Shown in pieces: positions 18,311 through 48,960 of a stretch of 64,000 nucleotides of DNA. The DNA lies in the NCBI GenBank assembly GCA_964629765.1, contig CAZVTK010000002.1, forward strand, positions 32,898 through 96,897, read 5' to 3'. The notes under the pieces were generated by a model, which had not been told where the DNA came from, did no database searches, and saw only the letters and a program-made list of their open reading frames with translations. The DNA comes from an uncultured Mesorhizobium sp. (lineage in GTDB: Bacteria > Pseudomonadota > Alphaproteobacteria > Rhizobiales > Rhizobiaceae). Made by a program: the position numbers and the translations under genes. The number at the start of each line of letters is the position of its first letter. Position 1 is the stretch's first letter.

Positions 18311-18320
18311 CGTCCGGCGC

Positions 18321-18857: not shown

Positions 18858-18895
18858 GCTCGTCTCCTCGTCGCGCGATGATGTGCGAAGCGCCG

Positions 18896-19840: not shown

Positions 19841-19843
19841 GGG

Positions 19844-20275: not shown

Positions 20276-20345
20276 CTCGCGGCCTCCGCCGCGCCGATGC
20301 CGGCACAGGGCGCCGGCGTCCCGTCATGTCGCTTTGCGGTCATGG

Positions 20346-21795: not shown

Positions 21796-21809
21796 CGGGT
21801 GTCCACTTC

Positions 21810-22520
21810 TCATTTCTTCTGTCGGGCGTCGGGATCGCCGATGCGGCGGTTGCCCGTGAGCCGATCGGAGGCCCAGCGCACCTGAGCGGCGATCTCGCCG
21901 GGGGCGCGGGGCAAGGTGTCGAGCACGCCCTGCTTGACGAGTTGCAGGCAGGCCGGGTCGTGCCCGGCTATCCGCGCCGCCCAGCCCCGGGCGAACGGCA
22001 GCACCTCGGCCGGGGGCAGCACGCGGTTGAGGAAGCCGGCGCGGTGGAGCTCCGCCGCCGACACCTCGTCGGCGAGCAGCAGGTATTCCATCGCCAGCTT
22101 GTGGGGCACGCGCGCGGCGAGCGCCGAGGCGACGCCTTTCGAGAATCCGATCCTGACCTCCGGATAGCAGAAGCGGGCGTCCTCCGCGGCCACCGCGAGG
22201 TCGACCTGCTGGAGCAGGATCATTCCGCCGGCGACGCACCAGCCTTCGACGGCGGCGATGATGGGCTTGGCGGTGCGCACGCCCAGATTGGGCGCCCAGC
22301 GGGAGCCGCTCTGCGGCGGATCCTTCAGGTCGACGCCGGAGCTGAAATTGCCGCCGGCGCCGCTGAGCACGGCAACGACGTCGTCGCCCTCCTCGAAGCG
22401 CCTCCATGCGGCTTCCAGATCGGCGGCCATCTGCTCGTTGATGGCATTCTTCCTCTCGGGACGGTTGAGCGTGATCGAAGCCACCCCGTCCTTCGAGGCA
22501 TACAGCACGGTGCCGGTCAT
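21810..22520 (-). CDS. Enoyl-CoA hydratase/isomerase family protein
   Basis: LNRPERKNAI, FSSGVDL, KPIIAAVEG and YPE (single catalytic Glu). Confidence 0.9.
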   Translation of the reverse strand: MTGTVLYASKDGVASITLNRPERKNAINEQMAADLEAAWRRFEEGDDVVAVLSGAGGNFSSGVDLKDPPQSGSRWAPNLGVRTAKPIIAAVEGWCVAGGMILLQQVDLAVAAEDARFCYPEVRIGFSKGVASALAARVPHKLAMEYLLLADEVSAAELHRAGFLNRVLPPAEVLPFARGWAARIAGHDPACLQLVKQGVLDTLPRAPGEIAAQVRWASDRLTGNRRIGDPDARQKK

Positions 22521-22621
22521 CTTCCTCCCCTGTCCGAGCCTGCGAAGCATGGACATCCTACACGGCTCCCCGGTCCGTGTCGGACGCCCTCGATTGCCGC
22601 TCGTTGTTGTCTATGCATATG

Positions 22622-22673: not shown

Positions 22674-23900
22674 CTATGCGGATGCCCTCCTCGGCACCGC
22701 TTCCGCCGCCGGCATCTCGATGCCCGACAGCCCGGAGCCGCCGTAGAGCCAAGCCAGGATATCGTACCATTCGGCGGCGGACTTGGCCTGCATGATCTCG
22801 TTGCGCAGCGCCGCATGCACGCCGGACGGATGGTAGATGTGGTCGCCGATCGCCCTCGACTGGAGCTGGACGCGCGCCGTGCGCAACGTCCTCGCCGTCT
22901 GATAGCGCAGCATCGCGGTTTCGACGTCGTCCGAATGCTGGAGCAGATGCGTCAGCGCGACCGCGTCCTCCATGGCCATGCAGGCGCCCTGCGCGAAATA
23001 CTGCATCATGGGATGGGCCGCGTCCCCCAGCAGCGCCACGCGGCCGTCGACCCATCTGGCGATCGGTTCCCGGTCGCACAGGACCCATTTGCGCCAGTTC
23101 GATCCGTGCTGGATGATCGACCGGGCCGTCGCGCAGGTGTCGCGAAAGCCCTCATGCACCTCGTCGTGATGCACCGGAGCACCGGCCACGGGCTCCGGCG
23201 CGTGGTTATGGTAGGTCACCACCAGATTGAACGAGCTCCAGTCCGACAACGGATAGTGCACGATATGGCATTTGGGGCCGGCCCACAGCGTCGCCGCGTT
23301 CCAGCGCAGATCTTCCGGCATGTCCTCGACGGCGATGACGGAGCGGTAGGTGGTGTGGCCGGAAACCCGCGGCGGCCCGTCTGCGGCGAGCTGGCTCCTG
23401 ACGTTCGACCAGAGGCCGTCGGCGCCGACCAGCGCGCTTCCGCGCAACCGCTCGCCATCGGCCAGGGTCGCCGTCACCGACGCGCCGTCCTGGTCGTAGC
23501 GCGCCACTTCCGCGCTGGTCCGGATATCGACGAGGCTCGATTCGCGGCAGCGGCGCAGCAGGATGGAGTGGAGCTCGCCGCGATGCACGACCGCATAGGG
23601 ATTGCCGAACCGCTGGCGGAACGCATCCTCCAGCGGAATGCGGATGATCTCGTCGCCGCTCAACGCGTCCATCAGGCGCAGGCTGTCGATGAAGATGGCG
23701 TGCCGCTTCGCCTCCTGCGCGATGCCGAGAAAGTCGAAGGAGTGGAATGCGTTAGGGCCGAGCTGGATGCCCGCGCCGATCTCGCCGAGCGTGGGCGCCC
23801 TTTCCAGCACGAGCACGCGCATGCCGCGCTCCGCCAGCCCGAGCGCCAGCGACAGGCCGCCGATTCCGGCTCCGGCGATCAAAATTGGCAAGGACGTCAT
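22674..23900 (-). CDS. 3-hydroxybenzoate 6-monooxygenase-like FAD monooxygenase
   Basis: GAGIGG, EIGAGIQLGPN, GADG, LGDAAHPMMQYFAQGACMAMEDA; adjacent to gentisate genes. Confidence 0.88.
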   Translation of the reverse strand: MTSLPILIAGAGIGGLSLALGLAERGMRVLVLERAPTLGEIGAGIQLGPNAFHSFDFLGIAQEAKRHAIFIDSLRLMDALSGDEIIRIPLEDAFRQRFGNPYAVVHRGELHSILLRRCRESSLVDIRTSAEVARYDQDGASVTATLADGERLRGSALVGADGLWSNVRSQLAADGPPRVSGHTTYRSVIAVEDMPEDLRWNAATLWAGPKCHIVHYPLSDWSSFNLVVTYHNHAPEPVAGAPVHHDEVHEGFRDTCATARSIIQHGSNWRKWVLCDREPIARWVDGRVALLGDAAHPMMQYFAQGACMAMEDAVALTHLLQHSDDVETAMLRYQTARTLRTARVQLQSRAIGDHIYHPSGVHAALRNEIMQAKSAAEWYDILAWLYGGSGLSGIEMPAAEAVPRRASA

Positions 23901-23950
23901 CAGCTTCTCCAATCGCGACGCCCGGCGCCGCAATCCTGCGTATTCATTAA

Positions 23951-25715: not shown

Positions 25716-26363
25716 TCATTCCACATCCGGCTGCGCTTCGGGCGCAGCGGACCGGAAGGCTTCCAGTTCGAGGCATCGTGCCTCGATCTCCAGCAGGCGG
25801 GGAAGGGCTTGCAGGTCGCAGCCGAAGCGGCGCGCGCTGTAGAGCTGCGGGATCAGGTATATTTCCGCCATGCCCGGGCGGTCGCCGAAGGCATAGCCCC
25901 CGGCGCGGGGCCCGAGCAGCGCCTCGCAGGCCGCCAGGCCCCGGCCGATCCAGTGCCTCGCCCAGCGGTCGACCGCGGGCTGCTCCTGCGCAAGCTCGGT
26001 GCGCAGATAGGACAGCACGCGCAGGTTGGCGAGCGGATGGATGTCGGCGGCCATGACCTGCGCGAAAGCGCGGCAGCGCGCGCGCTCGAACGGGTCCTGC
26101 GGCAGCAGGCGCGGCTCGGGACGGCTTTCCTCCAGCCACTCGATGATCGCCGAGGACTGCGTGAGCACCGCCCCGCCGACGGCGAGGCTGGGCACCAGCA
26201 TCTGCGGGTTGATCGCGGCGTAGGCGGGTTGCAGATGCTCGCCGCCATTGCGCCGCAGATGGACGTACCGCGTCTGCGGCGCAACGCCCTTCAGGGCGAA
26301 CGCTATGCGGCAGCGATAGGCGGCCGAGCTGCGGAAATAGCCGTAGAAGACCAGCTCATCCAT
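25716..26363 (-). CDS. nagL: Maleylpyruvate/maleylacetoacetate isomerase (GST zeta)
   Basis: YFRSSAAYRCRIA, NPQMLVP, QSSAIIEWL, DIHPLANLRVL. Confidence 0.92.
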   Translation of the reverse strand: MDELVFYGYFRSSAAYRCRIAFALKGVAPQTRYVHLRRNGGEHLQPAYAAINPQMLVPSLAVGGAVLTQSSAIIEWLEESRPEPRLLPQDPFERARCRAFAQVMAADIHPLANLRVLSYLRTELAQEQPAVDRWARHWIGRGLAACEALLGPRAGGYAFGDRPGMAEIYLIPQLYSARRFGCDLQALPRLLEIEARCLELEAFRSAAPEAQPDVE

Positions 26364-27072
26364 GGCCCGCCGTCCCTTCCGGCGCGGCGATGACGAGCTC
26401 GACCGGCGGGCAGCCGTGGATCGAGCCGTCGATCCTGTCGCCGGGCTCGACCGGCCCGACGCCGGCCGGGGTCCCGGTGAAGATCAGGTCGCCGGCCTCC
26501 AGATGGTAGAGCGTGGAAAGATGGGCGATCAGCTCCGGCACGCTCCAGACGAGATCGCTGAGGCGCGCCGACTGCTTCCGCGCGCCGTTGACGCGCAGCG
26601 ATATGGCCTGCCCGCCCACGGCGCCGAACCGCTCGGCAGGCACGATCCCGGCAAGCACCGCCGATTGCTCGAACGCCTTGCCGACGTCCCACGGCCGCTG
26701 CCTGGCGCGGGCTTCGAGCTGCAGGTCGCGCCGGGTCATGTCCAGCCCGCAGGCATAGCCGTAGACGGCGTCCAGCGCCCTGGCCGCCGGCACGCGGAAC
26801 GCCGGCCCGCCGAGCGCCACGACCAGCTCCATCTCGTAGTGATAGTTGGACGTCGCCGGCGGATAGGGAATCGTCGAGCCGGACGGCACGTAGGCCGACG
26901 CCGGCTTGGTGAAGTAGAACGGCGCCTCGCGGTCGACGGCCACGCCCATCTCGGCCGCGTGCTCGGCATAGTTGCGCCCGACGCAGAAGATGCGGCGTAT
27001 TGGATAGCGCACCTGGCTGCCCGCGATGGACGCGAGCACCGGCGGCGGCGGCTCGAACAGACAGGACGACAT
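26356..27072 (-). CDS. nagK: Fumarylpyruvate hydrolase (FAH family)
   Basis: RRIFCVGRNYAEHA.EMG, PFYFTKP, YHYEMELV, DMTRRDLQ, GDLIFTGTPAGVG. Confidence 0.9.
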   Translation of the reverse strand: MSSCLFEPPPPVLASIAGSQVRYPIRRIFCVGRNYAEHAAEMGVAVDREAPFYFTKPASAYVPSGSTIPYPPATSNYHYEMELVVALGGPAFRVPAARALDAVYGYACGLDMTRRDLQLEARARQRPWDVGKAFEQSAVLAGIVPAERFGAVGGQAISLRVNGARKQSARLSDLVWSVPELIAHLSTLYHLEAGDLIFTGTPAGVGPVEPGDRIDGSIHGCPPVELVIAAPEGTAGHG

Positions 27073-27077
27073 GGCGG

Positions 27078-28121
27078 TCAGTCTCTCGCCCGCTCTTCGT
27101 AGAAGCCGAGCTTCTGCTGCAACGGCGTGTCGTGGACGCGGATGAGATGGGCGTCCCCGCCCGTCGCGCGATGGTCGATCCTGGCGAACACCGGCGCGGA
27201 GAAGGTGTCGCCGCGCCGCCATGCGATCTCCGTGCCGTCGACATGGCTCACGCCTTCGCCGTCGACGACATGGAACACGCCGCTGGTCGACTTCAGCGGC
27301 GGTTCGTAGACGTCGCCCGCGCGCAGCAGCATGGCGGTGAAGCCCATCGTCGGAAGGCAGGGCTCGCCCGTCTCCGGGTTGACGTAGTCGAGCTCGATGG
27401 GTTCGTTGGCGTCCGCGAAGGTCTTCAGGCGGGCGAGCGCTGCTGCCGTCTTCTCCCAGGGATAGCGAAGCTGCGGATATTTCGTCCGCAGGGCGCCGGC
27501 GCTGCGCGGCGGCAGCAGCCCCGCCTCGGAAAACTCCAGCATGGACGCATCGGGCCGGTTGCGCGGCGTCTGGAATTCGCCCTCGATGGCATAGGAGCCC
27601 TCGAGGTAGACGAACAGCGGCAGGTCCAGCGCGTCCAGCCAGATGACCGGCTCGCTGCCCTCGTGGCCGTGGTCGTGCCACATGCCGCCCGGCGTGAGCA
27701 CGAGGTCGCCGTGCTTCATGACGCATTTCTCGCCGTCGACGATGGTGAAGGCGCCTTCGCCCTCGACGATGATGCGCGCCGCGCTCGGGGTGTGCTTGTG
27801 AGCGGGGGCCTTCTCGCCGGGCAGCAGAAGTTGCAGGCCGCAATAGATGGCGGAGCTGACCTGCATGGCGCCGGCGCCGCGGCCGGGATCCGAGAGCACC
27901 AGCACGCGGCGCTCGGCCTTTTCGACAGGTGTCAGCTCGCCCGCCTTCAGCAGCAGCGGACGGATGTCCCGGTATCTCCAGATGCCGGGCTTCGTCGCCG
28001 GCGCCGGGCGCCCGTGCGGCAGCACGTTGCGCATCATCGGCCACAGAGGCGCGGTGGACTGCGCGCTCAGCGCCTGCCGGTAGTCCAGCGGGAGATCTTC
28101 CATCGTGCCGAGATTTGCCAT
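27078..28121 (-). CDS. nagI: Gentisate 1,2-dioxygenase (NagI-type bicupin)
   Basis: LLLKAGELTPVEKAERRVLVL, HKHTPSA, TPGGMWHDHGH, WLDALDLP; nagI-K-L gene order. Confidence 0.9.
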   Translation of the reverse strand: MANLGTMEDLPLDYRQALSAQSTAPLWPMMRNVLPHGRPAPATKPGIWRYRDIRPLLLKAGELTPVEKAERRVLVLSDPGRGAGAMQVSSAIYCGLQLLLPGEKAPAHKHTPSAARIIVEGEGAFTIVDGEKCVMKHGDLVLTPGGMWHDHGHEGSEPVIWLDALDLPLFVYLEGSYAIEGEFQTPRNRPDASMLEFSEAGLLPPRSAGALRTKYPQLRYPWEKTAAALARLKTFADANEPIELDYVNPETGEPCLPTMGFTAMLLRAGDVYEPPLKSTSGVFHVVDGEGVSHVDGTEIAWRRGDTFSAPVFARIDHRATGGDAHLIRVHDTPLQQKLGFYEERARD

Positions 28122-28910: not shown

Positions 28911-28989
28911 GTCGGGTTCCGTTTCCAAGAAGAATACTGATAGTCTCTATACGTTCATATTTCCTGTCGCGCGCCTTCCGGCCGCCGGG

Positions 28990-29823
28990 TCAGCGCGTCT
29001 GCCACGGCAGCAGCCGGGCCTCCAGCTCCTGGATGAGGAAGGTGATGATGACGCCGAGCGCCGAGATGGTGACCAGGGCGACATACATCGTATCGATCGC
29101 GAAGGTCGACCACGCGTTCCACAGCAGGTAGCCGAGCCCGCTGCTGGCGCCGAGCATCTCGGCGACCGCGATGAGCACCAGCGCCATGCCCGCGGCCAGG
29201 CGCACCCCGGCGAAGATGAAGGGGATCGCGCCGGGCAGGGCGATCGTGCGGAAGACCTGGTAGCGGTTGGCGCCGAAATTCTTGCCGACGTCGTAGTAGA
29301 TGCCCGGGATTTGCAGCACGCCGGCGGCGGTGTTGATGAGGATCGGGAAGAACACGCCGACCGCGACCATCGCGTATTTCGACGATTCGCCGAGGCCGAA
29401 CAGGATGAGGAAAAGCGGGAACAGCGCGGTCTTGGGGATGGCGTAGAGCGCGGCGCTGATAGGCTCCACCACCACCCGCACCCAGCGGGACAGTCCCATC
29501 GCTATGCCGAGCGCGATGGCCGGCACCGCCCCGAACAGGAATCCGATGGCGACCCGCTGGAGGCTGACGAGCATATGCACGATGAGCTCGCCCGACTTCA
29601 CCATCGCGAAGAGCCCGCCGAGGATCGTCGAGGGCAGCGGGAAGAAGCGGATGTCTATCAGCGAGAGGCGGCCGAGGATTTCCCACAGGACGAGCAGCAG
29701 CATCGGCGTGACGAATACGAGGATGCGCTCCCGGCGCCGCTGCCGGGCCTTGCGTCCGATCAGCGCCTCGCGGCGCTTCTGCGCCCTCGCGGCTGCGTAG
29801 GAGACGTCGACATCGGTGGTCAT
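28990..29823 (-). CDS. ABC transporter permease (NitT/TauT/SsuC family)
   Basis: FFPLPS.I, YAIPKTALFP, GVFFPILINT, IALPGAIP.IF.G.R. Confidence 0.92.
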   Translation of the reverse strand: MTTDVDVSYAAARAQKRREALIGRKARQRRRERILVFVTPMLLLVLWEILGRLSLIDIRFFPLPSTILGGLFAMVKSGELIVHMLVSLQRVAIGFLFGAVPAIALGIAMGLSRWVRVVVEPISAALYAIPKTALFPLFLILFGLGESSKYAMVAVGVFFPILINTAAGVLQIPGIYYDVGKNFGANRYQVFRTIALPGAIPFIFAGVRLAAGMALVLIAVAEMLGASSGLGYLLWNAWSTFAIDTMYVALVTISALGVIITFLIQELEARLLPWQTR

Positions 29824-29847
29824 GCCTGCAATTCCCCGTTCGGATGC

Positions 29848-30606
29848 CTATTCGATGCCGGTGACTTCGCTGCGCAGAGATTCCCAGATCTGGTAGACGA
29901 CGCGCCCGTATTCGGGGTCCTTGCGCAGCTCCAGCACGTCGCGCGGCCGGGCGAACGGCACCTCGATGACAGACTTGATGCGGGCGGGCCGCGCCGTCAT
30001 CACGATCACCGTGTCGCTGAGCGTCACCGCCTCGTCGACGCTGTGGGTGACGAAGACGACCGTCTTGCGGGACTCGTCCCACACCTTCAGCAGCTCGTGC
30101 TGGAGAATGGTGCGGTTCTGCTCGTCGAGGGCCGAGAACGGCTCGTCCATGAGGAAGACGTCGGGGTCGTTGGCGAAGGCGCGGGCGATCGACACGCGCT
30201 GCTTCATCCCGCCCGACAGCTCGTGCGGGTACGCCTTGGCGAACTTCGACAGGCCCGTCTTCTCCAGATAGCGGCCGACGCGCTCGGTGAGCACCCCGTC
30301 GGGCACGCCGCGGATCTTCAGGCCGTAGGCCGCATTGTCCCACACCGTCATCCAGGGGAAGACGGAATCGCCCTGGAACACCATGGAGTTGGAATAGGGC
30401 GTTGCGGGCGTGCCCATACGCACCTCGCCCTCCGACGCGTCCTCCAGCCCGGCGAGGATGCGCAGGAAGGTGGTCTTGCCGCACCCGCTTGGGCCGACGA
30501 TGGACACGAACTTGCCCTCGGGCACGTCGAGCGAGACGTTGTCCACCGCACTGATCAGCCCGGTGTTGCCGGCGAATTCCTTCGTGAGGCCGCTTACCTT
30601 GATCAC
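29848..30606 (-). CDS. ABC transporter ATP-binding protein (TauB/SsuB family)
   Basis: GPSGCGKTT, LSGGMKQR, LMDEPFSALD. GTG start with SD GGAGG. Confidence 0.93.
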   Translation of the reverse strand: MIKVSGLTKEFAGNTGLISAVDNVSLDVPEGKFVSIVGPSGCGKTTFLRILAGLEDASEGEVRMGTPATPYSNSMVFQGDSVFPWMTVWDNAAYGLKIRGVPDGVLTERVGRYLEKTGLSKFAKAYPHELSGGMKQRVSIARAFANDPDVFLMDEPFSALDEQNRTILQHELLKVWDESRKTVVFVTHSVDEAVTLSDTVIVMTARPARIKSVIEVPFARPRDVLELRKDPEYGRVVYQIWESLRSEVTGIE

Positions 30607-31883
30607 TGCATCCTCCCCGCGGCCTCGTCCGCGCCGCCGGCCTGCCCGATCAAGCTTTTCAGATCGACGTCCGTCGCCGCAAGCAGCCCGGCCGGCACGC
30701 TCGACCGCTGGCCGAGCATGCGCCGGCCCAGCATGTAGGTGCGCGGGTCGTTCACCGATTCCACGGCGGTCACCCGGTCGCCGCGCGTGCGGAACACGGA
30801 GAAGCTGCCGCCGGCGGCGTCGCCGCGCACGACGATGCCGTCGTCCCCGCCCGGCACGCCGGCGATCTGGAGCCTCAGTCCGAGTTGCTCGCTCCAGAAC
30901 AGCGGCACCTGCTCGTAACTGCCGCCGCTCCCCATGATCCGGTCGGCGACGTAGCGGCCCTGGTCGACGGCGTTCTGGACGGACTCGATCCGCCACCGCG
31001 CGCCGCCGCCGTCCGGAAAGCTGGCGCAGTCGCCGATCGCCCAGATCGCAGGGTCCGGCGTCCGCAGGCGCTCGTCGACGAGGATGCCGTTCGCCACGGG
31101 CAATCCGGCCTCGGCCGCCAGCTCGACATTGGGCAGGACGCCGACGGCGACGACCACGGCGTCGGCATCCAGCCTGAGCCCGGCGCGCGTCAGCACGCCG
31201 CCGACGGCGCCCGATCCCAGGAAAGCACGCACCTGATCGTTGAACAGGAAGGACACGCCCTCGGTCGCGTGGCGCCGCTCGAAGGCGGCCGAAACCGGGC
31301 CGGTCACGGCTCTCGCCATCGACCGCGACGCCGCTTCGACGACCGTCACCCGCTTGCCCTGCGCCGCGAAGCAGGAGGCGACCTCCATGCCCAGGAAGCC
31401 GGCGCCGACGACGATGATCGCTCGCGCGCCGGCAAGGGCGCCGCGCATGGCGAGGGCCTCCTCCATCGTGCGCAGGTGGTAGATGCCCGGCAGCTCGCAA
31501 CCCTCGCAGGCCAGCGTGCGATTGCGCGCGCCGGTGGCGAGGACGAGGTCGTCGTAACGCAGGCCGGCTCCGTTCGACAGCCGCACGTTCCGCGCCCGGC
31601 GGTCGATGGCGAGGACCGCAGTGCCGTCGATCAGCTCGATGCCGCCGGCGGCGAAGTCGTCGCCGTCATGCGTCGCCAGCGCGTCGGCGCCGACCGTTCC
31701 GGCGAGCAGCGCCTTCGACAGGGGCGGGCGCTGATAGGGACGGCCGCGCTCCGCCGCCACCACCGCGACTGCGCCCCCGAAGCCGAGCTCGCGCAGCCGG
31801 AAGGCCACGGCGAGGCCGGCCTGGCCGCCTCCGGCGATGACGACCCGCCGGGGCGCTTCGCTGCTGGAACGAGCGGTCACCAT
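30603..31883 (-). CDS. Ferredoxin reductase (putidaredoxin reductase-like)
   Basis: GGGQAG, YQRPPLSK, LATGAR, VGAGFLG.E, AIGDC, VPLFWSEQ. Confidence 0.92.
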   Translation of the reverse strand: MVTARSSSEAPRRVVIAGGGQAGLAVAFRLRELGFGGAVAVVAAERGRPYQRPPLSKALLAGTVGADALATHDGDDFAAGGIELIDGTAVLAIDRRARNVRLSNGAGLRYDDLVLATGARNRTLACEGCELPGIYHLRTMEEALAMRGALAGARAIIVVGAGFLGMEVASCFAAQGKRVTVVEAASRSMARAVTGPVSAAFERRHATEGVSFLFNDQVRAFLGSGAVGGVLTRAGLRLDADAVVVAVGVLPNVELAAEAGLPVANGILVDERLRTPDPAIWAIGDCASFPDGGGARWRIESVQNAVDQGRYVADRIMGSGGSYEQVPLFWSEQLGLRLQIAGVPGGDDGIVVRGDAAGGSFSVFRTRGDRVTAVESVNDPRTYMLGRRMLGQRSSVPAGLLAATDVDLKSLIGQAGGADEAAGRMQ

Positions 31884-33070
31884 TGCACCGGCAGTCGCCT
31901 GATGTGGAAGACCACGGTGGAATCGTCGAATTCGAGCTCCTGCATCGGCACTGCAAGGCGCAGCCCCGGCAGGCGCCGGATCAGCGTCTCGAACGCGATC
32001 TCCATCTCGATGCGGGCGAGCGGCTGGCCGAGGCACTGGTGCACGCCGTAGGAAAAGGCCAGATGCCGGTTCTCCGGGCGGAAGATGTCGAACACGTCAG
32101 GATCGGCGAACTGGGCCGGATCGCGGTTCGCCGCCGAGATGAGCGCGAAGATGCCTTCGCCCGCGCGGATCGTCTTGCCGCCCACCTCGATGTCGGCGGT
32201 CGCCACGCGCGCGGAGTTGAGATGCACGATGGTGTTGAAGCGCAGCATCTCCTCGATGGCGGGCCTGAGCAGCGCCGGGTCCGCCTTGATCGCCTCGAAC
32301 TGGGCCGGATGCTCCAGCAGGCTGAGCGCGCCGAGCGCGATCTGGTTCGCCGAGGTGTCGTGTCCGGCCGCGTAGAGCAGCGACGCCATCTGGACGGCAT
32401 CGTCATGGGACAGCGTGCCGGGCACGATATAGTCGGCCGCCAGCCGCGACAGCATGTCGTCGCCGGGGTTCCTCGTCTTCTCGCGGATGATGTCGCCGAG
32501 CAGCACAAGCATGTTCGCCGCCGCTTGCCTGACCACGGAAGGATCGTTCGCCAGCACGTTGCGGGCTTCGGTCCATTCGCGCAGCCTGTCGTAATGTTCG
32601 TATGGCACGCCGAGCATGGTCGAGATGATCGTCGCCGGCAGCGGCATGGCGTAGCCTTCGCGCAGGTCGGCCGGCGAGCCGCCGGCGATCATCGCGTCGA
32701 GCAGCCTGTCGGCTACCGCCTGTATGGCCGGCCGCAATTGCTCCAGCCGCTTGACCGTGAACTCGCGCGTCAGCATGCGCCGGAAGAAGGTGTGGTCCGG
32801 CGGATCCATGGTGATGAAGGCACGCCGGGCGCCGGCGCGCGCGGCATGGCCGGCCGAAAAGGTCGGATAGCCCTCGCGGGTCGGCATCGCGCTCACATGC
32901 GGGCTCGAAAGCACCGTTCTGACGTCCTCCCAGCGCGTGATCATCCACGCCTGCCGGCCGTTCCAGAGGCGCACCCTGGCGACCGGGTCCCGCTCCCTGA
33001 AGAAAGAGTAGAACCCCGGCGGATTGAGCGGGTCGTCCCCGCGCGGCTGGGGAAAGTTGGCAGAGTGCAT
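31877..33070 (-). CDS. Cytochrome P450 (CYP105-like)
   Basis: FITMDPPDH..RR, AGHDTS I-helix, EEMLR (ExxR) and heme motif FSYGVHQCLG. Confidence 0.95.
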   Translation of the reverse strand: MHSANFPQPRGDDPLNPPGFYSFFRERDPVARVRLWNGRQAWMITRWEDVRTVLSSPHVSAMPTREGYPTFSAGHAARAGARRAFITMDPPDHTFFRRMLTREFTVKRLEQLRPAIQAVADRLLDAMIAGGSPADLREGYAMPLPATIISTMLGVPYEHYDRLREWTEARNVLANDPSVVRQAAANMLVLLGDIIREKTRNPGDDMLSRLAADYIVPGTLSHDDAVQMASLLYAAGHDTSANQIALGALSLLEHPAQFEAIKADPALLRPAIEEMLRFNTIVHLNSARVATADIEVGGKTIRAGEGIFALISAANRDPAQFADPDVFDIFRPENRHLAFSYGVHQCLGQPLARIEMEIAFETLIRRLPGLRLAVPMQELEFDDSTVVFHIRRLPVQW

Positions 33071-33095
33071 CCGTCGTTTTCCTGTTGGCGCGCCG

Positions 33096-33296
33096 TCACT
33101 CGTCCTCGACGATCTCGATCGCCAGGACCGGGCAGGCGCGCGCCGCCGACCGCGCTGCGGCGTGCCGCGCGGCGGCGGGCTGGTCATCGAGGAGGACGAC
33201 GATCCCGTCGTCCTCGTTCTGGTCGAACACGTCGGGGGCGGCCAGAACGCAATGGCCCGCACCGATGCATTTGTCCTGGTGGATCCTGATCTTCAT
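33096..33296 (-). CDS. 3Fe-4S ferredoxin (P450 partner)
   Basis: CIGAGHC...APDVF...CP motif; immediately upstream of the P450. Confidence 0.92.
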   Translation of the reverse strand: MKIRIHQDKCIGAGHCVLAAPDVFDQNEDDGIVVLLDDQPAAARHAAARSAARACPVLAIEIVEDE

Positions 33297-33384
33297 GCCT
33301 TGATCGCGCGTCGGGGGAGCCGGGTTGTCCGCTGCCGGTGCAGCGGGGCGGCCGGGCACCGTCGCGGGCCCGGCCGGATGGGCC

Positions 33385-34446
33385 TCAGTTGGACAGTTCC
33401 TTCACGAAGCTCTCGTCGACCACGTCCTCGGCGGTGATCGTGTCGCTCGTGATGAACCCGCGCTTGCGATAGTAGTCCAGGTCGTTGCGCATGGACTCCA
33501 TGTTGATGAAGCCATCCTCCCGGATCGAGGGGTTGTTGATGGACTGCACCAGCTCCTTGTCGACCTTGATGTACTTCAGGAGGATGTCGATGATCCCGTC
33601 GGCGCCTTCGCCGGTGAGCTTGGCATTCACCAGCGCGCGGTTGTACTCGGCGACGGCTCCCTTCCATGCCCGCATGAAGGCGAGGCCGCCCGGGCGATTC
33701 TCCTCGATGAAGCGGCCGCTGTAGTACACGCCGGAAACCTGCTGGTCCGCATAGACGACGTCGGCGCCGGCAAAGACCTTCGCCGCGCCCGACCTGACGG
33801 CGATCGTCGACTGCGGCTCCGCGGTGACGGAAGCGTCGACCGCGCCGTTGGTCAGCGCCACGATGTGCTCGGGGGCGGGGAGGAAGGCGCGGGTCACGTC
33901 GTCCTCGGAGACGCCCCCCTGCTCCAGCATGCGGGAGAACCAGACTTCCGTGCTGCTGTCCTTGGCATAGCCGGCGATCTTGCGGCCCTTCAGGTCGGCG
34001 AAGCTCTTGAACTCGCCGGAATCGAGCAGCGCCGTGCGCACCAGCAGGTTGGCGTAGGAATAGCCCGGAAGCGGCCGGCCGCGGTCGGCCACCATCTTGA
34101 TCGGCAGCCCGCGCGAGACGGCATTGTAGAGGCTGGCGGAGGGGCCGCCCGACCCGACGTCGAGCTGGCCCGACGCGAGCGCGGCGACCATGTCGGCGCC
34201 GCTCTTGAACGGCACGAGCTCCACGTCGAGGCCTTCCTTCGAGAAGTAGCCTTTCTCCGCGGCGATGTAGAACACGATGTCGGTCATGGTGTGCTGGTGC
34301 CCCACCGTGACCTTCTGTCCGCCCTGCGCGAGCGCGCCGGCGGCCGGAAGCGCGGTCAGCGCCGCGGCGGCCAGGGACAGTTTCAGGACACTGCGTCGCG
34401 ACCCGCGTCCAGACATGACACGGTCATTGTTCGGTCTATGCATCAC
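33385..34446 (-). CDS. ABC transporter substrate-binding protein (NitT/TauT family), Tat-like signal
   Basis: SRRSVLK signal, YIAAEKGYF..EGLDVE, DLKGRKIA. SD GGAGG. Confidence 0.9.
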   Translation of the reverse strand: MMHRPNNDRVMSGRGSRRSVLKLSLAAAALTALPAAGALAQGGQKVTVGHQHTMTDIVFYIAAEKGYFSKEGLDVELVPFKSGADMVAALASGQLDVGSGGPSASLYNAVSRGLPIKMVADRGRPLPGYSYANLLVRTALLDSGEFKSFADLKGRKIAGYAKDSSTEVWFSRMLEQGGVSEDDVTRAFLPAPEHIVALTNGAVDASVTAEPQSTIAVRSGAAKVFAGADVVYADQQVSGVYYSGRFIEENRPGGLAFMRAWKGAVAEYNRALVNAKLTGEGADGIIDILLKYIKVDKELVQSINNPSIREDGFINMESMRNDLDYYRKRGFITSDTITAEDVVDESFVKELSN

Positions 34447-34493: not shown

Positions 34494-34518
34494 ATTCTGA
34501 TAATCAGCATACTGTCAA
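34494..34518 (-). promoter_or_regulatory. Promoter/operator ATTCTGATAATCAGCATACTGTCAA (MarR site 34503-34516; minus-strand TTGACA..TAGCAT)
   Basis: Read directly; near-identical in layout to 38508-38532. Confidence 0.7.
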
Positions 34519-34567
34519 GTTTGCATCGAGCCTTCGCGGCCTTGCCCGGCCGGCCGGGCAACGCCGC

Positions 34568-36721
34568 TCAGGCCCGGGCGATCGCCACGGGCACGTTGGT
34601 CATGCGGGGCTGGCCGGTGAACGGGTCGAAGACCTCATCGACCGGGATCAGCCGGTTCGGGCTCGAACCGACCGCGGCCGGGTCGGCATCCGGGTCCTGC
34701 GCCCTGCCGTGGCCGAAGGCGATCGAGACGGTCCCGCGCCGCAGGTGAGCGTCGGCCTGCGCGATGGCGCGGATGGAGCCGAGCGGCGAGGAGATCGCGA
34801 CCTCGTCGCCGTCCGCCACGCCGAGCTCGTGCATGTCGTCGGGATGGAGGTAGGCCGGGTTGTAGGCAGGCCCCTTGTTGGTCGCGGCCTTCCTCGTCGT
34901 GTTGTTGACGTGGTTGGCGCGGCGGCAGAGCATGCGGTAGCCGTAGCGGCCGTCCTCCGGCTCCCGCGGCCGTGCGAGATGTTCGCCGAGGCGGCGCATC
35001 ATCTCCGCGCTGCCGACGTCCAGCCGCGCCGTATTGGCCGGATCGCCGGGCTCGACGACGATCAGGTCCTCGTCGAAGACGTGGCCGCCGGGATAGCGCC
35101 TGACGGTGTCGAGCGGAATGCGGCTGCCCTCGGTGAAGCGCTCCAGCAGCGCCTCCGTGGTCGGCCTCTCGTCGAAGCGGATCTTCGGTGCGGTGGGGCG
35201 TCCGAACGGGCGCGCCTCGGGGGGATAGCCCATGCGCACCAGCAGCTCGTAGAAGATCTGCCAGTCCTCCAGCAGGTCCGAGCCGGCCGGCCGCCCGACG
35301 ATGGCGTCCGTGTACTGGGCATGCGCCATGGCCTGCCCGTAGCCGGTGGCGCGACCGGAAAGATAGTCGGTGCAGACCGTCGCCGAGGCGACTTCGAGCG
35401 GCATCGCGGTCGGCAGGACGTAGTGCGCCATGCCGGCCGATTCCGACATCCAAGGGTCGATCTGGACGAACAGCTCGAGCGCCCTCAGCGCCTCCACGAC
35501 GCGCCGCTGATCGGGAAATGCCAGCGCCGGATTGCCGCCCCAGCTTATGAACGCCCGCACCTGCCCGTCGCCGGGCGTGAGTATCTCCTCGGCCAGCGCC
35601 GCCACGGGCATGCCGGCGCGCGACTGCTTCAGCCCGCGCACCCGCATCCGCCCGCCCTGCGCCCAGTCCCTGTCGGGTGCGCGGGCCTGGGCCCGGGCCC
35701 GGAACGGCGGCAGCAACGACGGCGACGGCTTGATGCGCTCGCCGGCGCGCAGCCAGCGTCCGCACAGGGTTTCGAGCACCTGCACGAGATATTCGGCGAG
35801 CGTGCCCTGTCCGGTCATGTGCAGGCCGGTGCCGGCCATCGCATAGCCGCGGCGCGCCCGCGCGTAGCACCGCGCGGCCTCCGCGAGAGCGGTCGCCTGG
35901 ACGCCGGCAGCCCGGGCCACCGCGTCCACGTCGACCGGCTCCAGCGCCCGCGACAGCGCGTCGAGCCCGGCGACGTGGTCCGCCACGAACGGGCGGTCGA
36001 ACAGCCGCTCGCCGACGATCACCTTGATCATGGCCGCCAGGACGCTCACATCGTGGCCGGGGGCGATTTGCAGGAAATGCGTGGCGCGCTGCGCCACCTG
36101 TGTCTCGCGCGGATCGATGACGATCAGCTTGCAGCCGCGCGCCAGCGTCTCGATCAGCCAGCGCCGCGGGGAGCCGGCGGGAAAGCCCGTATAGGTGTTC
36201 CACGGATTGATGCCGATCAGCAGGATCGCTTCCGGCTCGTCGAAGCCCTGCGAGGGTGCCTCCCAATAGCCGAGGAACGACTGCGCGGCCAGCTTGCCGC
36301 CCTTGTCGATCGTGTTGGGATCGAAACGCATGTTCGTGCCGATCGCGTCGAGCAGCGCGTCGTAGAAGGGCATGGCCGCGGCGCGATTGCCGACCGAGGC
36401 CTGCGTGCCCCAGTAAGCGGCGACGGATCGCGGCCCGTGGCGCGCCACGATCCCGCTCAGCTTGCGCGCGATCTCGTCGAGAGCCTCGCTGCTGGACAAA
36501 GGCTCGTGGCTTCCGTCGGCGCGCCTGCGCAGCGGCCGCAGCAGCCGCGCCTCGTCGGTGAGGTAGGAGCCCTGGGAGCGGCCCTTGACGCAGGTGTAGC
36601 CCCGGTATTGCGGATTGTCGGGATTTCCTTCCACCGCAAGGACCTTGCCGTCCTCCAGCACCACGTTGATCGAGCACTGGTTGATGCAGACGCGGCAGAA
36701 GGACTGCTTGACCTCGATCAT
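34568..36721 (-). CDS. Molybdopterin-dependent oxidoreductase catalytic subunit (DMSO reductase family, cytoplasmic)
   Basis: N-terminal CRVCINQC..C 4Fe-4S motif, CVKG, RLLRPL, VIDPR, GGNP and a C-terminal molydop-binding domain. No Tat signal. Confidence 0.9.
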   Translation of the reverse strand: MIEVKQSFCRVCINQCSINVVLEDGKVLAVEGNPDNPQYRGYTCVKGRSQGSYLTDEARLLRPLRRRADGSHEPLSSSEALDEIARKLSGIVARHGPRSVAAYWGTQASVGNRAAAMPFYDALLDAIGTNMRFDPNTIDKGGKLAAQSFLGYWEAPSQGFDEPEAILLIGINPWNTYTGFPAGSPRRWLIETLARGCKLIVIDPRETQVAQRATHFLQIAPGHDVSVLAAMIKVIVGERLFDRPFVADHVAGLDALSRALEPVDVDAVARAAGVQATALAEAARCYARARRGYAMAGTGLHMTGQGTLAEYLVQVLETLCGRWLRAGERIKPSPSLLPPFRARAQARAPDRDWAQGGRMRVRGLKQSRAGMPVAALAEEILTPGDGQVRAFISWGGNPALAFPDQRRVVEALRALELFVQIDPWMSESAGMAHYVLPTAMPLEVASATVCTDYLSGRATGYGQAMAHAQYTDAIVGRPAGSDLLEDWQIFYELLVRMGYPPEARPFGRPTAPKIRFDERPTTEALLERFTEGSRIPLDTVRRYPGGHVFDEDLIVVEPGDPANTARLDVGSAEMMRRLGEHLARPREPEDGRYGYRMLCRRANHVNNTTRKAATNKGPAYNPAYLHPDDMHELGVADGDEVAISSPLGSIRAIAQADAHLRRGTVSIAFGHGRAQDPDADPAAVGSSPNRLIPVDEVFDPFTGQPRMTNVPVAIARA

Positions 36722-38385
36722 CCCGCCTTGCCTTCCCTAGCCACTTTCGCGATTTCGGCGCGATCCACGAGCTTGACGCGCGGACGGCGGGACGATCTGC
36801 CTCCGGCGCGCTCGTGCCGGTCGATCGCACGCCATTCCCCGATGCCGCCGCTGCGCGCGATCGCCGACGCGAGCCTGTCCGGGATGCCGGCGGGAGCGGG
36901 CAGCCGGCCGCTCCGCATGTCGGCAAGGAGCGCGGCAACCGCCTCCTGCGCGCATGTCCTGTTGCTCCCCATCGAGCCGCTCGGCCCCCGCCTTATCCAT
37001 CCCGTCACATAGGTGCCCGCGGCCGGCTCTCCGCCTGCGGAATCGGCGACCCGCCCGTCCGTATTCGGGACCGTGCCGCGGCGCGGATCGAAGGGAAGCC
37101 CGGCGATGGGCGTCCCCCTATTGCCGACCGAGCGCAGGACCATCCCGGCATCCAGCACGTCTTCCTCGTCCGTTGCCGTCGCAAGGATCTCTCCGTCGGC
37201 GGCGTGGTCGAGACGGTTCCTGACGAAGCGGACGCCGGTCACGCTGCCCTCTCCCAGGATCTCGACGGGAGAGCGCTGGAAAAGCAGTTTCAGGACACGT
37301 CCGCCCGCCGGATGCCGGCTCGCCAGCCGGCCCAGCGCCTCCAGCCTGCGCGCGCCCGCCCAGTGCTCCGCGAACCCGTCCAAACCCGCCGCCTCCGGCA
37401 TCTCCACCTGAACCGCGAAACCGCGCGATTTGGCGAGGCCGAGCAGCTCCGGCAGGGTGAAGGCCGCCTGCGCCGGGCCGCGCCGGCCGACCACCGACAC
37501 TTCCCTGATGCGGCTTTCGGCGAGCGCCGCGAGCGCGTGGTCGGCGATGTCCGTGCGCCTGAGCGCGTCGATGTCCGAGAGAAGGATTCGCGCCACGTCG
37601 AGGGCCACGTTGCCGTTGCCGAGGACGACGGCGCGTTCCGTATCGAGATCGAAGCGACGATCCGCGAAGTCGGGATGGCCGTTGTACCAGGCGGCGAACT
37701 CGGCCGCCGACCAGCTTCCGCGCAGATCCTCGCCCGGAATGCCGAGCCGCCTGTCGCCCGCGGCCCCGGTGGCATAGATCACCGCATGATAGGCCCGGCG
37801 CAGGTCGAGATGGCCGATGTCGCGGCCGACCTCGACGCCCAGCACCAGCCTGAAACGCGGATCGTCGGCGGTGCGCTCGAATATTGCGGTGATTCCCCTG
37901 GTCCCGGCGTGGTCCGGCGCCACGCCGAAGCGCGCCAGCCCCCACGGAACCGGCAGGCGCTCGAACATGTCGACCGCGACGTCGAGGCCCGGCGTGCCCA
38001 AAAGCGCCTCGGCGGCATAGGCGCCGGCGGGACCCGACCCGACGATCGCGACACGCAAGGCGCCGTCGCGCGCCATCCGGCGGTCGTCGAGCCGCCGCGG
38101 CGCGCGGCGAGGCACGTATCGCGGCGCCGCGCCGTCGCGGAAGAAGCTGGCATTCAAATCGATGAACGCGCGGTCGGCGCCCATCAGGTCATAGTCCGGC
38201 AGGATCGCCCCGACGGGGCAGACATCCGCGCAGGCCCCGCAGTCTATGCAGACATCCGGGTCGATGTAGAGCATGTCCGCACCCATGTAGCCGGCGTCCG
38301 ACGGGGTGGGATGGATGCAGTTGACCGGGCAGACCGGCACGCAGGATGCGTCGTTGCAGCAGGGCTGTGTGACGACGTGGGGCAT
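36718..38385 (-). CDS. fprB: Ferredoxin-fused ferredoxin-NADP reductase (FprB-like)
   Basis: PHVVTQPCCNDASC..CPVNCIHP..CIDCGAC..CP, then GSGPAG, GL.RFGVAPDH, GNGNVALDVAR and GWIRRGP.G. Confidence 0.85.
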   Translation of the reverse strand: MPHVVTQPCCNDASCVPVCPVNCIHPTPSDAGYMGADMLYIDPDVCIDCGACADVCPVGAILPDYDLMGADRAFIDLNASFFRDGAAPRYVPRRAPRRLDDRRMARDGALRVAIVGSGPAGAYAAEALLGTPGLDVAVDMFERLPVPWGLARFGVAPDHAGTRGITAIFERTADDPRFRLVLGVEVGRDIGHLDLRRAYHAVIYATGAAGDRRLGIPGEDLRGSWSAAEFAAWYNGHPDFADRRFDLDTERAVVLGNGNVALDVARILLSDIDALRRTDIADHALAALAESRIREVSVVGRRGPAQAAFTLPELLGLAKSRGFAVQVEMPEAAGLDGFAEHWAGARRLEALGRLASRHPAGGRVLKLLFQRSPVEILGEGSVTGVRFVRNRLDHAADGEILATATDEEDVLDAGMVLRSVGNRGTPIAGLPFDPRRGTVPNTDGRVADSAGGEPAAGTYVTGWIRRGPSGSMGSNRTCAQEAVAALLADMRSGRLPAPAGIPDRLASAIARSGGIGEWRAIDRHERAGGRSSRRPRVKLVDRAEIAKVAREGKAG

Positions 38386-38507: not shown

Positions 38508-38587
38508 ATTCTGATTATCAGTATGCGGTCAATATGATCCGCCGCCTGCCGGCAGTTTGACAGCATGCACTTTATCAGTATACGGAG
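38508..38587. promoter_or_regulatory. Divergent promoter region with MarR-type sites ATCAGTATGCGGTC (38517-38530) and ATCAGTATACGGAG (38574-38587)
   Basis: Minus-strand TTGACC at 38527-38532 and plus-strand TTGACA at 38557-38562; AT-rich. Confidence 0.7.
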
Positions 38588-47672: not shown

Positions 47673-48716
47673 TCAGGCGTCCTGCTCGCGGTAGAAGCCG
47701 AGCTTTTCCAGGGCCGGGATGTCGTTGACCTGGAAGAGGATCGCCTCCTTGCCGGTATCGTTCAGGTGTTCGTGCGCGGCCCAGGGCGGCAGCGCGAGGA
47801 AGTCGCCCTTGGCCCAGTCGAAGCGCTGCCCGTCGATGATCGTCGCGCCGCTGCCGTCGACCACGTAGTAGACGGCGCTGCCGGTGTGGCGGTGCGCCTT
47901 GGTGTGCACGCCGGGGCGCAGCATCTGCAACCGCGTGCCGATGGTCGGCAGCGCGGGCTCGCCGGTGAGCGGATTCTGGTATTCGAGGATGACGTCGTCA
48001 TAGGGGTCGGGCGCGAGGCCGGCGGCGAGCCGCAGCGCCTGCTCCGCGCGCGCCCATGTGTAGGCCAGCAGCGGGCTGGACTTCTTCGGCGCCGGTTTCT
48101 TCAGCGGCCGCATGATGCCGCTGCCGAACTCGCGGTACGAGCGGTCGGGGATGGGGTCCACCGTCTGACGGGCCTGGTCGAAATCCTCGAAGAAGGTGGC
48201 GTGCATGGAGCGCACCAGCGAGATGTCGAGCACGTCGATCCAGATCATCGGGCCCGTGCCCCGGTGCTCGTGGTCGTGCCAGGCGCCGCTCGGCGTCAGC
48301 ACGAGGTCGCCCTTGTTGACGAGGTACTGCTCGCCGTCGACGATCGTGTCGGCACCCTCGCCTTCCATGATGAAGCGCAGCGCGGAGGCCATGTGCCTGT
48401 GCGCCGTGGCGATCTCGCCGGGCAGGATGTACTGGATCGAGAGCCAGAAGGTCGGCGTCGTGCCGTAGGGCAGGCCGGGATTGGTGAGCCGCAGGGTCCG
48501 GCGCTGGCCGCCGGCCTCCAGCTTCAGCTTGGCGCCGATCTTGTCGAGCAGCATGGAAATGTCGGCCGCTTTCCACAGCACCGGCTTCATCGGCGAGGAG
48601 GGCGTCCTGGAAAAAAGCGGGCCGTCGGTCGGCTGCGCCACCCTGGTGTTGTAGCGCTCCAGCGTGTCAATCAATGCGGCGCGCTCGCTGGCGTCGCTCA
48701 TCTCAACCTTGGCCAT
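47673..48716 (-). CDS. Second gentisate 1,2-dioxygenase-family bicupin (substrate unknown)
   Basis: RRTLRLTNPG, AHRH.ASALRF, TPSGAWHDH, HRHTGSAVY. SD GAGGAGG. Confidence 0.88.
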   Translation of the reverse strand: MAKVEMSDASERAALIDTLERYNTRVAQPTDGPLFSRTPSSPMKPVLWKAADISMLLDKIGAKLKLEAGGQRRTLRLTNPGLPYGTTPTFWLSIQYILPGEIATAHRHMASALRFIMEGEGADTIVDGEQYLVNKGDLVLTPSGAWHDHEHRGTGPMIWIDVLDISLVRSMHATFFEDFDQARQTVDPIPDRSYREFGSGIMRPLKKPAPKKSSPLLAYTWARAEQALRLAAGLAPDPYDDVILEYQNPLTGEPALPTIGTRLQMLRPGVHTKAHRHTGSAVYYVVDGSGATIIDGQRFDWAKGDFLALPPWAAHEHLNDTGKEAILFQVNDIPALEKLGFYREQDA

Positions 48717-48815
48717 CCGTGCCTCCTCGCAACCTCTCCGCCTCGAAACGCGACGCATCCGGCAAGGCATGCGCGATCGAGGCCGGGCGACCATGCGCCC
48801 GTCCAATCTTTGTGT

Positions 48816-48960
48816 CAATGGATGAACCATTGTATTTGGCGCGATGTCTGAAATGCCGCATGCCGGATCGAATCGCTGCGGGGGAACCCGGTCGCTCAAG
48901 CTGCGCAGATGGTGGTCATCTTGACCACCACCTCCAATTTTCATATGGTTCAACCATTGA
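48816..48960. promoter_or_regulatory. Divergent promoter with FadR-type sites CAATGGATGAACCATTG (48816-48832) and ATGGTTCAACCATTGA (48945-48960), plus inverted repeat GGTGGTCA-tct-TGACCACC (48911-48929)
   Basis: Read directly; each site overlaps a TTGACA hexamer. Confidence 0.7.

Follow-up and report, generated by a model that had tools for sequence, protein, structure and literature searches.

Known NAD(P)H-linked molybdoenzymes and a candidate pair in Mesorhizobium

The assimilatory nitrate reductases linked to NAD(P)H, such as NasB with NasC of Bacillus subtilis and NasC with NasA of Klebsiella, combine a cytoplasmic molybdoenzyme of the MopB superfamily, which has an N-terminal [4Fe-4S] cluster (FS0) and neither a signal for twin-arginine translocation (Tat) nor a membrane anchor, with a separate flavoprotein. 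Molybdenum (Mo)-dependent reductive C-O cleavage of aromatic (coenzyme A [CoA] ester) substrates is carried out by 4-hydroxybenzoyl-CoA reductase and gut catechol dehydroxylases, which use low-potential Fe-S donors. Here, we analyzed a 64,000-nucleotide (nt) stretch of DNA from an uncultured Mesorhizobium sp. (contig CAZVTK010000002.1; ~69% G+C), called the window hereafter, whose numbering is used for all coordinates unless another locus is named. Two overlapping genes in the window, for an FprB-like reductase and a MopB enzyme, probably encode a dedicated, two-protein, cytoplasmic, NADPH-driven molybdoenzyme that likely works in the reductive direction. An initial annotation of this DNA had stated that enzymes of the dimethyl sulfoxide reductase family normally use dedicated Fe-S subunits; this overlooks the NAD(P)H-linked Nas enzymes and the NAD-dependent formate dehydrogenases (FDHs), which can be regarded as the architectural precedent for the pair. 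By this comparison, the pair is most likely a new form of NAD(P)H-linked cytoplasmic MopB enzyme, with a reductase of FprA type joined to a 7Fe ferredoxin.

Both genes lie on the minus strand. The FprB-like gene (36718..38385) encodes 555 residues from an ATG at 38385, comprising a 7Fe ferredoxin domain and an FAD/NADPH domain of the FprA/adrenodoxin reductase type; an in-frame GTG at 38391 is also a possible start, and the database copy P0122 begins at the ATG at 38385. The MopB gene (34568..36721) encodes a cytoplasmic protein of 717 residues, predicted to bind Mo or tungsten through bis-pyranopterin guanine dinucleotide (bisPGD) and belonging to a clade with Asp at the metal-ligand position and no characterized member. 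The ATGA overlap described in the initial annotation was confirmed by reading the sequence: the FprB-like gene ends AAG GCG GGA TGA, the Mo gene opens ATG ATC GAG, and the two share 36718..36721 on the minus strand, an arrangement that points to translational coupling. A GC-rich inverted repeat of 25+25 nt lies across the Mo gene stop codon (34527..34576, minus strand) and is terminator-like, with no obvious T run. Because the pair has its own promoter/operator and this potential hairpin after the Mo gene, it is predicted to be a separate transcription unit. A Pfam scan of the confident open reading frames (ORFs) between 21.8 and 55.6 kb, in which some stretches (e.g., 26363-27078) gave no Pfam match at all, found no MopB beta Fe-S subunit, NrfD/DmsC-type anchor, or TorD/NarJ-type chaperone within ~13 kb, as the initial annotation had proposed.

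The MopB enzyme and its predicted Asp ligand

The Mo protein scored above the Pfam cut-offs for PF04879 Molybdop_Fe4S4 (48 bits), PF00384 Molybdopterin (84 bits), and PF01568 Molydop_binding (58 bits), and with the latter two domains and a four-domain fold it belongs to the MopB superfamily. Its AlphaFold2 model (predicted local distance difference test (pLDDT) score, 91.2; predicted template modeling (pTM) score, 0.92) has the full MopB fold, and the nearest folds found by Foldseek (E 1e-41) are those of FoDH1, FdhH, acetylene hydratase, PsrA, and Nap, with TM scores of ~0.75 and ~20% identity. The FS0 motif, C9-x2-C12-x3-C16...C44 (36590..36697, minus strand), is followed by an invariant Lys46 (36584-36586). 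No Tat signal was found on the Mo protein: the FS0 motif begins at residue 9 and the frame is open for only 5 codons further upstream, so that a Tat signal is impossible, in agreement with the initial annotation.

The loop that probably holds the metal ligand reads PNTIDKGG (P135-N-T-I-D139-K-G-G142; 36296..36319, minus strand), which contains no Cys and has Asp139 (codon 36305-36307) at the Mo-ligand position. In phmmer and profile alignments, Asp139 was aligned with Sec140 of FdhH, the selenocysteine (Sec) of F420-dependent FDH, and Cys141 of acetylene hydratase; in a MAFFT L-INS-i alignment with Escherichia coli references, it fell in one column with FdhF U140, FdnG U196, NapA precursor C179, and NarG D223. 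The residue was kept in 25/25 and in 97/98 family sequences, deep paralogues included, with the outgroup as the lone exception, and it stands within the family motif T-I-D-[QK]-[PG]-x-K. Apart from the four FS0 ligands, no Cys is invariant in the family; Lys46 and the PGD-binding motifs NP, DPR, and GNP are also invariant. The alignment to five solved or well-studied enzymes, together with this conservation, supports the suggestion of the initial annotation that the Asp of this Cys-free loop (Asp139) is the probable metal ligand. The position of FdhH His141 is Lys or Gln in the family (Lys140 in the window enzyme), and at FdhH Arg333 the FdhH alignment, which is the source of this comparison rather than a column tabulated across the family, places Pro/Ser and no Arg. 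An invariant Asp at the ligand position of an FDH/Nap-like scaffold is probably a sign of new chemistry.

Among described MopB enzymes, FDHs (FdhF, Fdh-alpha, and the NAD-dependent FdsABG) are the closest by profile (E 2.7e-58) and by fold (TM ~0.75), and they share the size, FS0, and the conserved Lys of the window enzyme. They differ from it in sequence (~20% identity) and in the catalytic set of metal-dependent FDHs, that is, a Sec/Cys ligand with His and a catalytic Arg (FdhH U140, H141, and R333), where the window enzyme has Asp and the family has Lys/Gln for His141; the score against TIGR01591 was 187 bits versus a cut-off of 666. The Nas enzymes resemble the window enzyme in being cytoplasmic MopB proteins with an N-terminal FS0, no Tat signal, and no membrane anchor, but have a Cys ligand and a NirB-type flavoprotein, whereas the window pair has Asp and an FprA-type reductase fused to a 7Fe ferredoxin. 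The scores were 144 bits for the NasC model (cut-off 1100) and 69 bits for NapA (cut-off 904), and the context of the window genes is catabolic rather than that of nitrogen assimilation.

Type II enzymes (NarG, ethylbenzene dehydrogenase, and PcrA) share the Asp at the aligned ligand position (NarG Asp223), a likeness of alignment only, but are more distant (PcrA, E 3.6e-25; EbdA, E 3.3e-13; versus 1e-58 for FDH), and the score for TIGR03479 was 99 bits against a cut-off of 985. They are also larger, their FS0 is of the His/Cys type, and they depend on a beta subunit that carries four Fe-S clusters and on Tat export or a NarJ-type chaperone; the window locus shows none of these features, and the window clade branches with FdhF/NapA, away from NarG. 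Acetylene hydratase (2e7z) is similarly a cytoplasmic MopB protein of ~720 residues that has FS0 but lacks a beta subunit (profile E 6e-54; TM 0.76). It differs in its Cys141 ligand and catalytic Asp13, in catalyzing no net redox reaction, and in having no reductase partner; the window enzyme, with neither Cys141 nor Asp13, does not belong with it. For 4-hydroxybenzoyl-CoA reductase and the catechol dehydroxylases, the analogy is one of function only, with which the CoA-transferase/ligase and aromatic-regulator context of the pair fits: the former belongs to the xanthine oxidase family, the latter are Tat-exported and membrane-associated, and no ancestry in common with the window enzyme was seen beyond the MopB superfamily. 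NCBIfam equivalogs for FDH, Nas/Nap, PhsA, DmsA, and others were also tried as names for the enzyme and were rejected, with all scores far below the cut-offs.

The Mo protein belongs to a family with at least 581 genome loci and more than 2000 proteins in databases; its members, which all have generic names, come from Actinomycetota, Pseudomonadota, Chloroflexota, and other phyla. In a rough MopB tree that included seven MopB proteins of E. coli, the family formed a clade with 100% support, sister to FdhF/FdnG/YdeP/NapA and apart from DmsA/BisC and NarG; the position of one sequence, own_L149, in the MopB-wide tree is a long-branch artefact. No named or characterized member of the Asp-type clade was found in the literature searched. 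The host genome has nine matches to PF00384, and three further MopB genes in it were recorded: a second member of the Asp-type clade (G000:C1:27529-29652; 37% identical), an unrelated cytoplasmic MopB protein of 720 residues (C73:13703-15127), and an FdnG-type FDH with selenocysteine at an in-frame TGA (C78:10586-12151).

The FprB-like reductase

Pfam assigned a ferredoxin domain and Pyr_redox_2 to the reductase. The ferredoxin domain (38137..38385, minus strand) contains the Cys motifs CC-x4-C-x3-CP (38329-38361) and C-x2-C-x2-C-x3-CP (38218-38250) and is of the 7Fe type; residues 5-85 matched 7Fe ferredoxins (1bc6, 1h98, 2v2k, and Azotobacter FdI) with E values of 1e-17 to 1e-13. The initial annotation had assigned two [4Fe-4S] clusters to this protein. 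Because the first motif is CC-x4-C-x3-CP and not CxxCxxCxxxCP, and because of the matches to 7Fe ferredoxins, the expected clusters are instead [3Fe-4S] and [4Fe-4S], as in known proteins of this type.

The FprA-like FAD/NADPH domain (36742..38052, minus strand) matched Mycobacterium tuberculosis FprA (1lqt) over residues 114-550 with an E value of 4.6e-104. The motifs GSGPAG, GNGNVALDVAR, and GRRGP are intact, and the alignment with FprA pairs vvgrrgpaqaaft with IVGRRGPLQAAFT. The VGRRGP motif, whose Arg codons lie at 37480-37485, is the same as in FprA, where it binds the 2'-phosphate of NADPH. With an FprA fold, FAD and NADPH Rossmann motifs, and an N-terminal 7Fe ferredoxin, the protein is an FprB-type fusion of the FprA/adrenodoxin reductase family, and we take it to be like M. 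tuberculosis FprB (Rv0886), a fusion with an N-terminal 'CCNDASC...CP' 7Fe ferredoxin. It differs from Rv0886 in that the window copy is joined to a MopB gene, in a lineage otherwise without FprB. No link between FprB and a molybdoenzyme was found in the literature searched.

Conservation and co-transfer of the pair

The initial annotation had named the outcome that would speak against a functional pair, namely that the two genes do not stay together and that FprB serves only the cytochrome P450 in the window. This outcome was not seen: the pair is conserved, mostly with overlapping genes, at six or more further loci, which represent three bacterial classes. The Mo proteins of these loci are 73% identical to that of the window in Sphingomonas (L001/L080) and Ottowia (L002), 75% in a Burkholderiaceae metagenome-assembled genome (MAG; L147), 73% (partial) on a metagenome contig (L124), 68% in Paracoccus lichenicola (L146), and ~62% on a contig where MoeA follows the pair (L158). 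The stop/start overlap is 4 nt in L080, L147, and L158, and 11 nt in L146. Adjacency to FprB is limited to the Mo subclade of the window. Trees of the Mo protein and of FprB gave the same order, (Paracoccus,(window,(Sphingomonas,(Burkholderiaceae,Ottowia)))), and thus, both genes of the proteobacterial copies moved as a unit.

FprB is present in a single copy in the 5.3-Mb host genome and was found in 0/40 genomes of the same genus, family, and order; the Sphingomonas and Ottowia genomes likewise contain only the Mo-linked copy. The absence from 40 relatives indicates, therefore, that the module was acquired. Only one other full-length FprB fusion was found among ~800 genomes of a phylum sample and a class sample. 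In Rhodococcus (L003 and L082), the order is reversed, with the Mo gene before FprB, and the FprB groups with another actinobacterial clade of FprB proteins (SH-aLRT support, 98), which points to independent recruitment. A sister actinobacterial branch (Nocardioides L004/L159, L005, and L012) has no FprB, and its Mo gene overlaps two CoA-transferase genes.

In the phylum sample (401 genomes), a 7Fe ferredoxin and FprA, fused or adjacent, occurred in four genomes only: that of the window, G224, G098, and G321. In G224 (L177, G224:C1:1208000-1227000), positions 7798-14705 hold a TetR gene, separate genes for a 7Fe ferredoxin and FprA, and two tandem MopB genes for 706 and 707 residues; these MopB proteins are ~26% identical to the window enzyme, have Asp at the ligand position (SSQDMTN), and are deep members of the same Asp clade. 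The reductase genes of this locus appear to have been recruited independently of the window pair. In G098 (L178, G098:C1:3716000-3734000), positions 4197-10278 hold a divergent AraC gene, a MopB gene for 725 residues, and genes for a 7Fe ferredoxin, FprA, and MoaA; this MopB protein belongs to a different family, grouping with the C73 MopB protein of the host genome, and is thus a second kind of cytoplasmic MopB enzyme beside ferredoxin/FprA. In G321 (L179), a MopB gene lies 7.5 kb downstream of ferredoxin/FprA on the same strand. No MopB gene was found within 1.5 kb of genes for FprA only. The class sample, also of 401 genomes, added G508 (L208), with adjacent 7Fe ferredoxin and FprA genes and a weak MopB-like match (22.5 bits) 3.6 kb away; a match in G792 lies on a 2.3-kb contig, which is too short for its surroundings to be judged. 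Outside Actinomycetota, the association of ferredoxin-FprA with MopB looks recurrent, in small numbers.

Regulation and the P450 system

A palindromic operator, ATTCTGATTATCAGTAT (38508..38524), overlaps a TTGACC -35 box upstream of FprB. A second copy, ATTCTGATAATCAGCAT (34494..34510), lies beside TTGACA, upstream of an operon for a substrate-binding protein, a ferredoxin, a P450, a ferredoxin reductase (FdR), and ATP-binding cassette (ABC) transporter components. The 17-bp palindrome ATTCTGATWATCAGNAT has these two strong sites in the window versus none expected by chance, and a weak, degenerate third site (28934-28950) was found upstream of genes for a short-chain dehydrogenase/reductase (SDR) and a cupin. 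The pair is thus predicted to be co-regulated with the importer/P450 operon via the common operator. The operator was not found at the orthologous loci, Sphingomonas included, and is unique to the window genome; the regulators at those loci are of the MarR, XylR, IclR, or PaaX types. The initial annotation had placed the pair in a MarR regulon, a proposal that was not borne out: the sole MarR gene of the window (15796-16251) is 18 kb from the pair. MarR was rejected as the regulator because there is no operator by its gene and because the operator is missing from Sphingomonas and all other loci.

The window also encodes a complete and separate class I P450 system (30603..33359, minus strand), with a single-cluster 3Fe-type ferredoxin (33096-33359) before the P450 (31877 to ~33085) and a putidaredoxin-reductase-type FdR with Reductase_C (30603 to ~31860) after it. 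The system lies within 28990-34446, inside the gene set of a NitT/TauT-type ABC importer, with the binding-protein gene on one side and the ATPase/permease genes on the other, and the Sphingomonas island has the same trio of ferredoxin, P450, and FdR. In Ottowia, Paracoccus, the Burkholderiaceae MAG, and Rhodococcus, the 8-10 kb read to either side of the pair contained no P450, and neither did the 9 kb read downstream of the L158 pair. The Paracoccus pair is flanked by resolvase and MazE genes, and the Burkholderiaceae pair has only a divergent IclR regulator beside it. The possibility that FprB serves the window P450 was therefore rejected, since a ferredoxin and an FdR already accompany this P450 and since other loci contain the pair but no P450 in the flanks read.

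Catabolic context

The MopB clade occurs mostly in clusters for the catabolism of CoA esters and aromatic compounds. Recurrent neighbors at 79 genome loci were SDRs (39), acyl-CoA synthetases (23), and family III CoA-transferases (12), and thiolase-like proteins, luciferase-like proteins, and epoxide hydrolases also recurred. The window and Sphingomonas islands are alike in gene content, with FMN_dh, a thiamine pyrophosphate (TPP) enzyme, the ferredoxin-P450-FdR trio, enoyl-CoA hydratase, family III CoA-transferase, a DHDPS-like protein, FAS1_DH, and MarR, and they probably represent one transferable pathway. Positions 15796-22556 of the window and 17783-22148 of L080 have a block in common that comprises enoyl-CoA hydratase, CoA-transferase, a small protein, DHDPS-like, FAS1_DH-like, and MarR genes. 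The window encodes 3-hydroxybenzoate 6-monooxygenase (556 bits; cut-off, 459) and two divergent cupins similar to gentisate/5-aminosalicylate dioxygenases (the three genes at 22674-23933, 27078-28121, and 47673-48953), which suggest that the island feeds a gentisate-type ring-cleavage route. The Ottowia locus has CoA-transferase, acyl-CoA dehydrogenase, TctC, and XylR genes, and at the Rhodococcus locus, PaaX, CoA ligases, and SDRs accompany two HGD-D subunits and their activator. An aromatic or alicyclic carboxylate, or the CoA ester of one, is the most likely substrate. The idea that the TPP enzyme and a family III CoA-transferase supply formyl-CoA/oxalyl-CoA chemistry to an FDH-like enzyme was rejected: the TPP enzyme is unlike Oxc or HACL.

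The HGD-D genes were seen on a Rhodococcus opacus plasmid (L082, CP137575.1; 6616-13848), where genes for two subunits similar to 2-hydroxyacyl-CoA dehydratase/benzoyl-CoA reductase and for a BcrAD/BadFG activator immediately precede the Mo gene; the host is an aerobic actinomycete, PaaX regulators are nearby, and a second HGD-D set lies 7 kb away; the FprB of this plasmid is split into two ORFs by a frameshift or a sequencing error. A plasmid search found only distant family members, on sphingomonad catabolic plasmids and without specific names. A metagenome scan with the window Mo protein gave one new close pair (L124) and otherwise mostly a clade ~36% identical to it. This clade (metagenome contigs L089-L141, e.g., L102 1-12771) has tightly conserved synteny, in the order KstD/FAD_binding_2-like protein, SDR, alcohol dehydrogenase (ADH), Mo enzyme, ADH, ThuA-like, SnoaL/LEH-like, P450, and acyl-CoA dehydrogenase; its association of a Mo enzyme with FAD_binding_2 and P450 genes is also present in the window.

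Proposed electron transfer chain and alternatives

We propose that NADPH would reduce the FAD of the FprA-type domain, from which electrons would move on to the 7Fe ferredoxin domain at the N terminus and enter its [3Fe-4S]/[4Fe-4S] clusters; an Arg-rich linker tethers this domain. This domain would dock on the MopB subunit and reduce FS0, and the electrons would then reach, via the conserved Lys46, the Mo-bisPGD center with Asp139 as its protein ligand. The reaction there would probably be reductive, such as the removal of an oxygen atom or a hydroxyl group from an aromatic or alicyclic carboxylate or its CoA thioester. We infer the physical docking, the metal and cluster content, the direction of electron flow, and the substrate class. 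The FprA/7Fe chain is of low potential, and for most C-H hydroxylations NADPH as donor suits it better than NADP+ as acceptor; by this reasoning, the direction from NADPH to Mo is favored.

The same chain might run in reverse, as a water-dependent hydroxylase or dehydrogenase that acts on a low-potential substrate (formate-, formyl-, or aldehyde-like, or with an activated C-H bond) and passes electrons via FS0, the 7Fe domain, and FAD to NADP+. The closest folds and sequences are indeed those of FDHs, which use diaphorase modules to reduce NAD(P)+; in the rough tree, FdhF/FdnG/NapA form the sister group of the clade, and alpha-hydroxy-acid (FMN_dh) and TPP enzymes are part of the catabolic surroundings. 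We nevertheless consider a reversed chain unlikely: the FDH catalytic set described above is missing, the window TPP enzyme is not Oxc/HACL-like, and the potential of most C-H hydroxylations is too high for the reduction of a 7Fe ferredoxin or of NADP+. That the enzyme is a hydratase or isomerase of an unsaturated acid or CoA ester, for which the sole task of FprB would be to maintain the metal and FS0 in the reduced state (reductive activation), seems very unlikely. Acetylene hydratase, an enzyme that retains FS0 but catalyzes no net redox reaction, ranks near the top of the matches by both sequence and fold, and members of the wider family lack a conserved redox partner and are found near enoyl-CoA hydratases and CoA-transferases; but the acetylene hydratase pair of Cys141 as ligand and Asp13 after the second FS0 Cys is absent (the window enzyme has C12-I13-N14), and a dedicated, co-transferred, and translationally coupled reductase would exceed the needs of an occasional activator. 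An NADPH-dependent cytoplasmic reductase of oxyanions (nitrate, chlorate, or selenate type) with Asp-ligated Mo as in NarG is more doubtful still, and hardly to be expected. Asp139 does align with NarG Asp222/223, the two-subunit NAD(P)H-linked build is like that of NasBC/NasCA, and a transporter of the NitT/TauT family is adjacent. Against these likenesses stand the lack of nitrite reductase or nitrate-assimilation genes nearby, the scores far below the cut-offs of Nas, Nap, and Nar models, and the setting of the orthologous pairs near CoA-transferases, acyl-CoA dehydrogenase, aromatic-type regulators (XylR, IclR, PaaX, and MarR), and varied carboxylate-type transporters.

Several observations weigh against a dedicated NADPH-driven pair. 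The ferredoxin domain of the AlphaFold2 model of FprB has a pLDDT below 50, the linker is also of low confidence, and the model is uninformative on docking, while direction and substrate are read from context and thermodynamic reasoning. Across the 79 genome loci, the Mo family has no conserved redox partner: 72 lack an adjacent FprB, and in some hosts (G044 and G050) neither FprB nor FprA was found, so that the MopB family as a whole is not obligately FprB-dependent. Given the operator shared with the P450 operon, FprB could also feed other acceptors, and at another locus (L148) an FprB adjoins SnoaL-P450-ferredoxin genes without an FdR or a Mo enzyme, which suggests that FprBs do serve P450s elsewhere. 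These last points, like the many family members without a neighboring FprB, would suit an unspecific adjacency, in which FprB is the general NADPH-ferredoxin reductase of the island and the Mo enzyme uses any ferredoxin. Such an arrangement appears quite unlikely, however, in view of the bare two-gene modules of Paracoccus and the Burkholderiaceae MAG, with only regulator or mobile-element genes near, the congruent Mo and FprB trees, the independent recruitment of reductases in Rhodococcus and L177, and the ferredoxin and FdR that the window P450 already has.

Implications

A wider generalization may be drawn, which we regard as improbable at present: Asp-type MopB enzymes with FprA/7Fe-ferredoxin reductases could form a previously unrecognized, soluble, NADPH-driven class in aerobic bacteria that acts on aromatic or alicyclic acyl-CoA esters by reductive C-O cleavage (dehydroxylation) or by a comparable removal of an oxygen atom. 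To our knowledge, such chemistry has so far been described in anaerobes only, and for other families of Mo enzymes. If true, this would be the first Asp-ligated Mo center outside the NarG-type (type II) branch, and an invariant Asp in such a scaffold would add to the ligands known for the FDH/Nap-like branch.

The linkage to FprB names a candidate electron donor, by which reconstitution with NADPH alone and substrate screening may be approached for a MopB clade of more than 2000 members, many of them in catabolic islands and on sphingomonad plasmids. The pair also suggests how a catabolic Mo enzyme takes an actinobacterial-type reductase with it on transfer to proteobacteria without such a protein.

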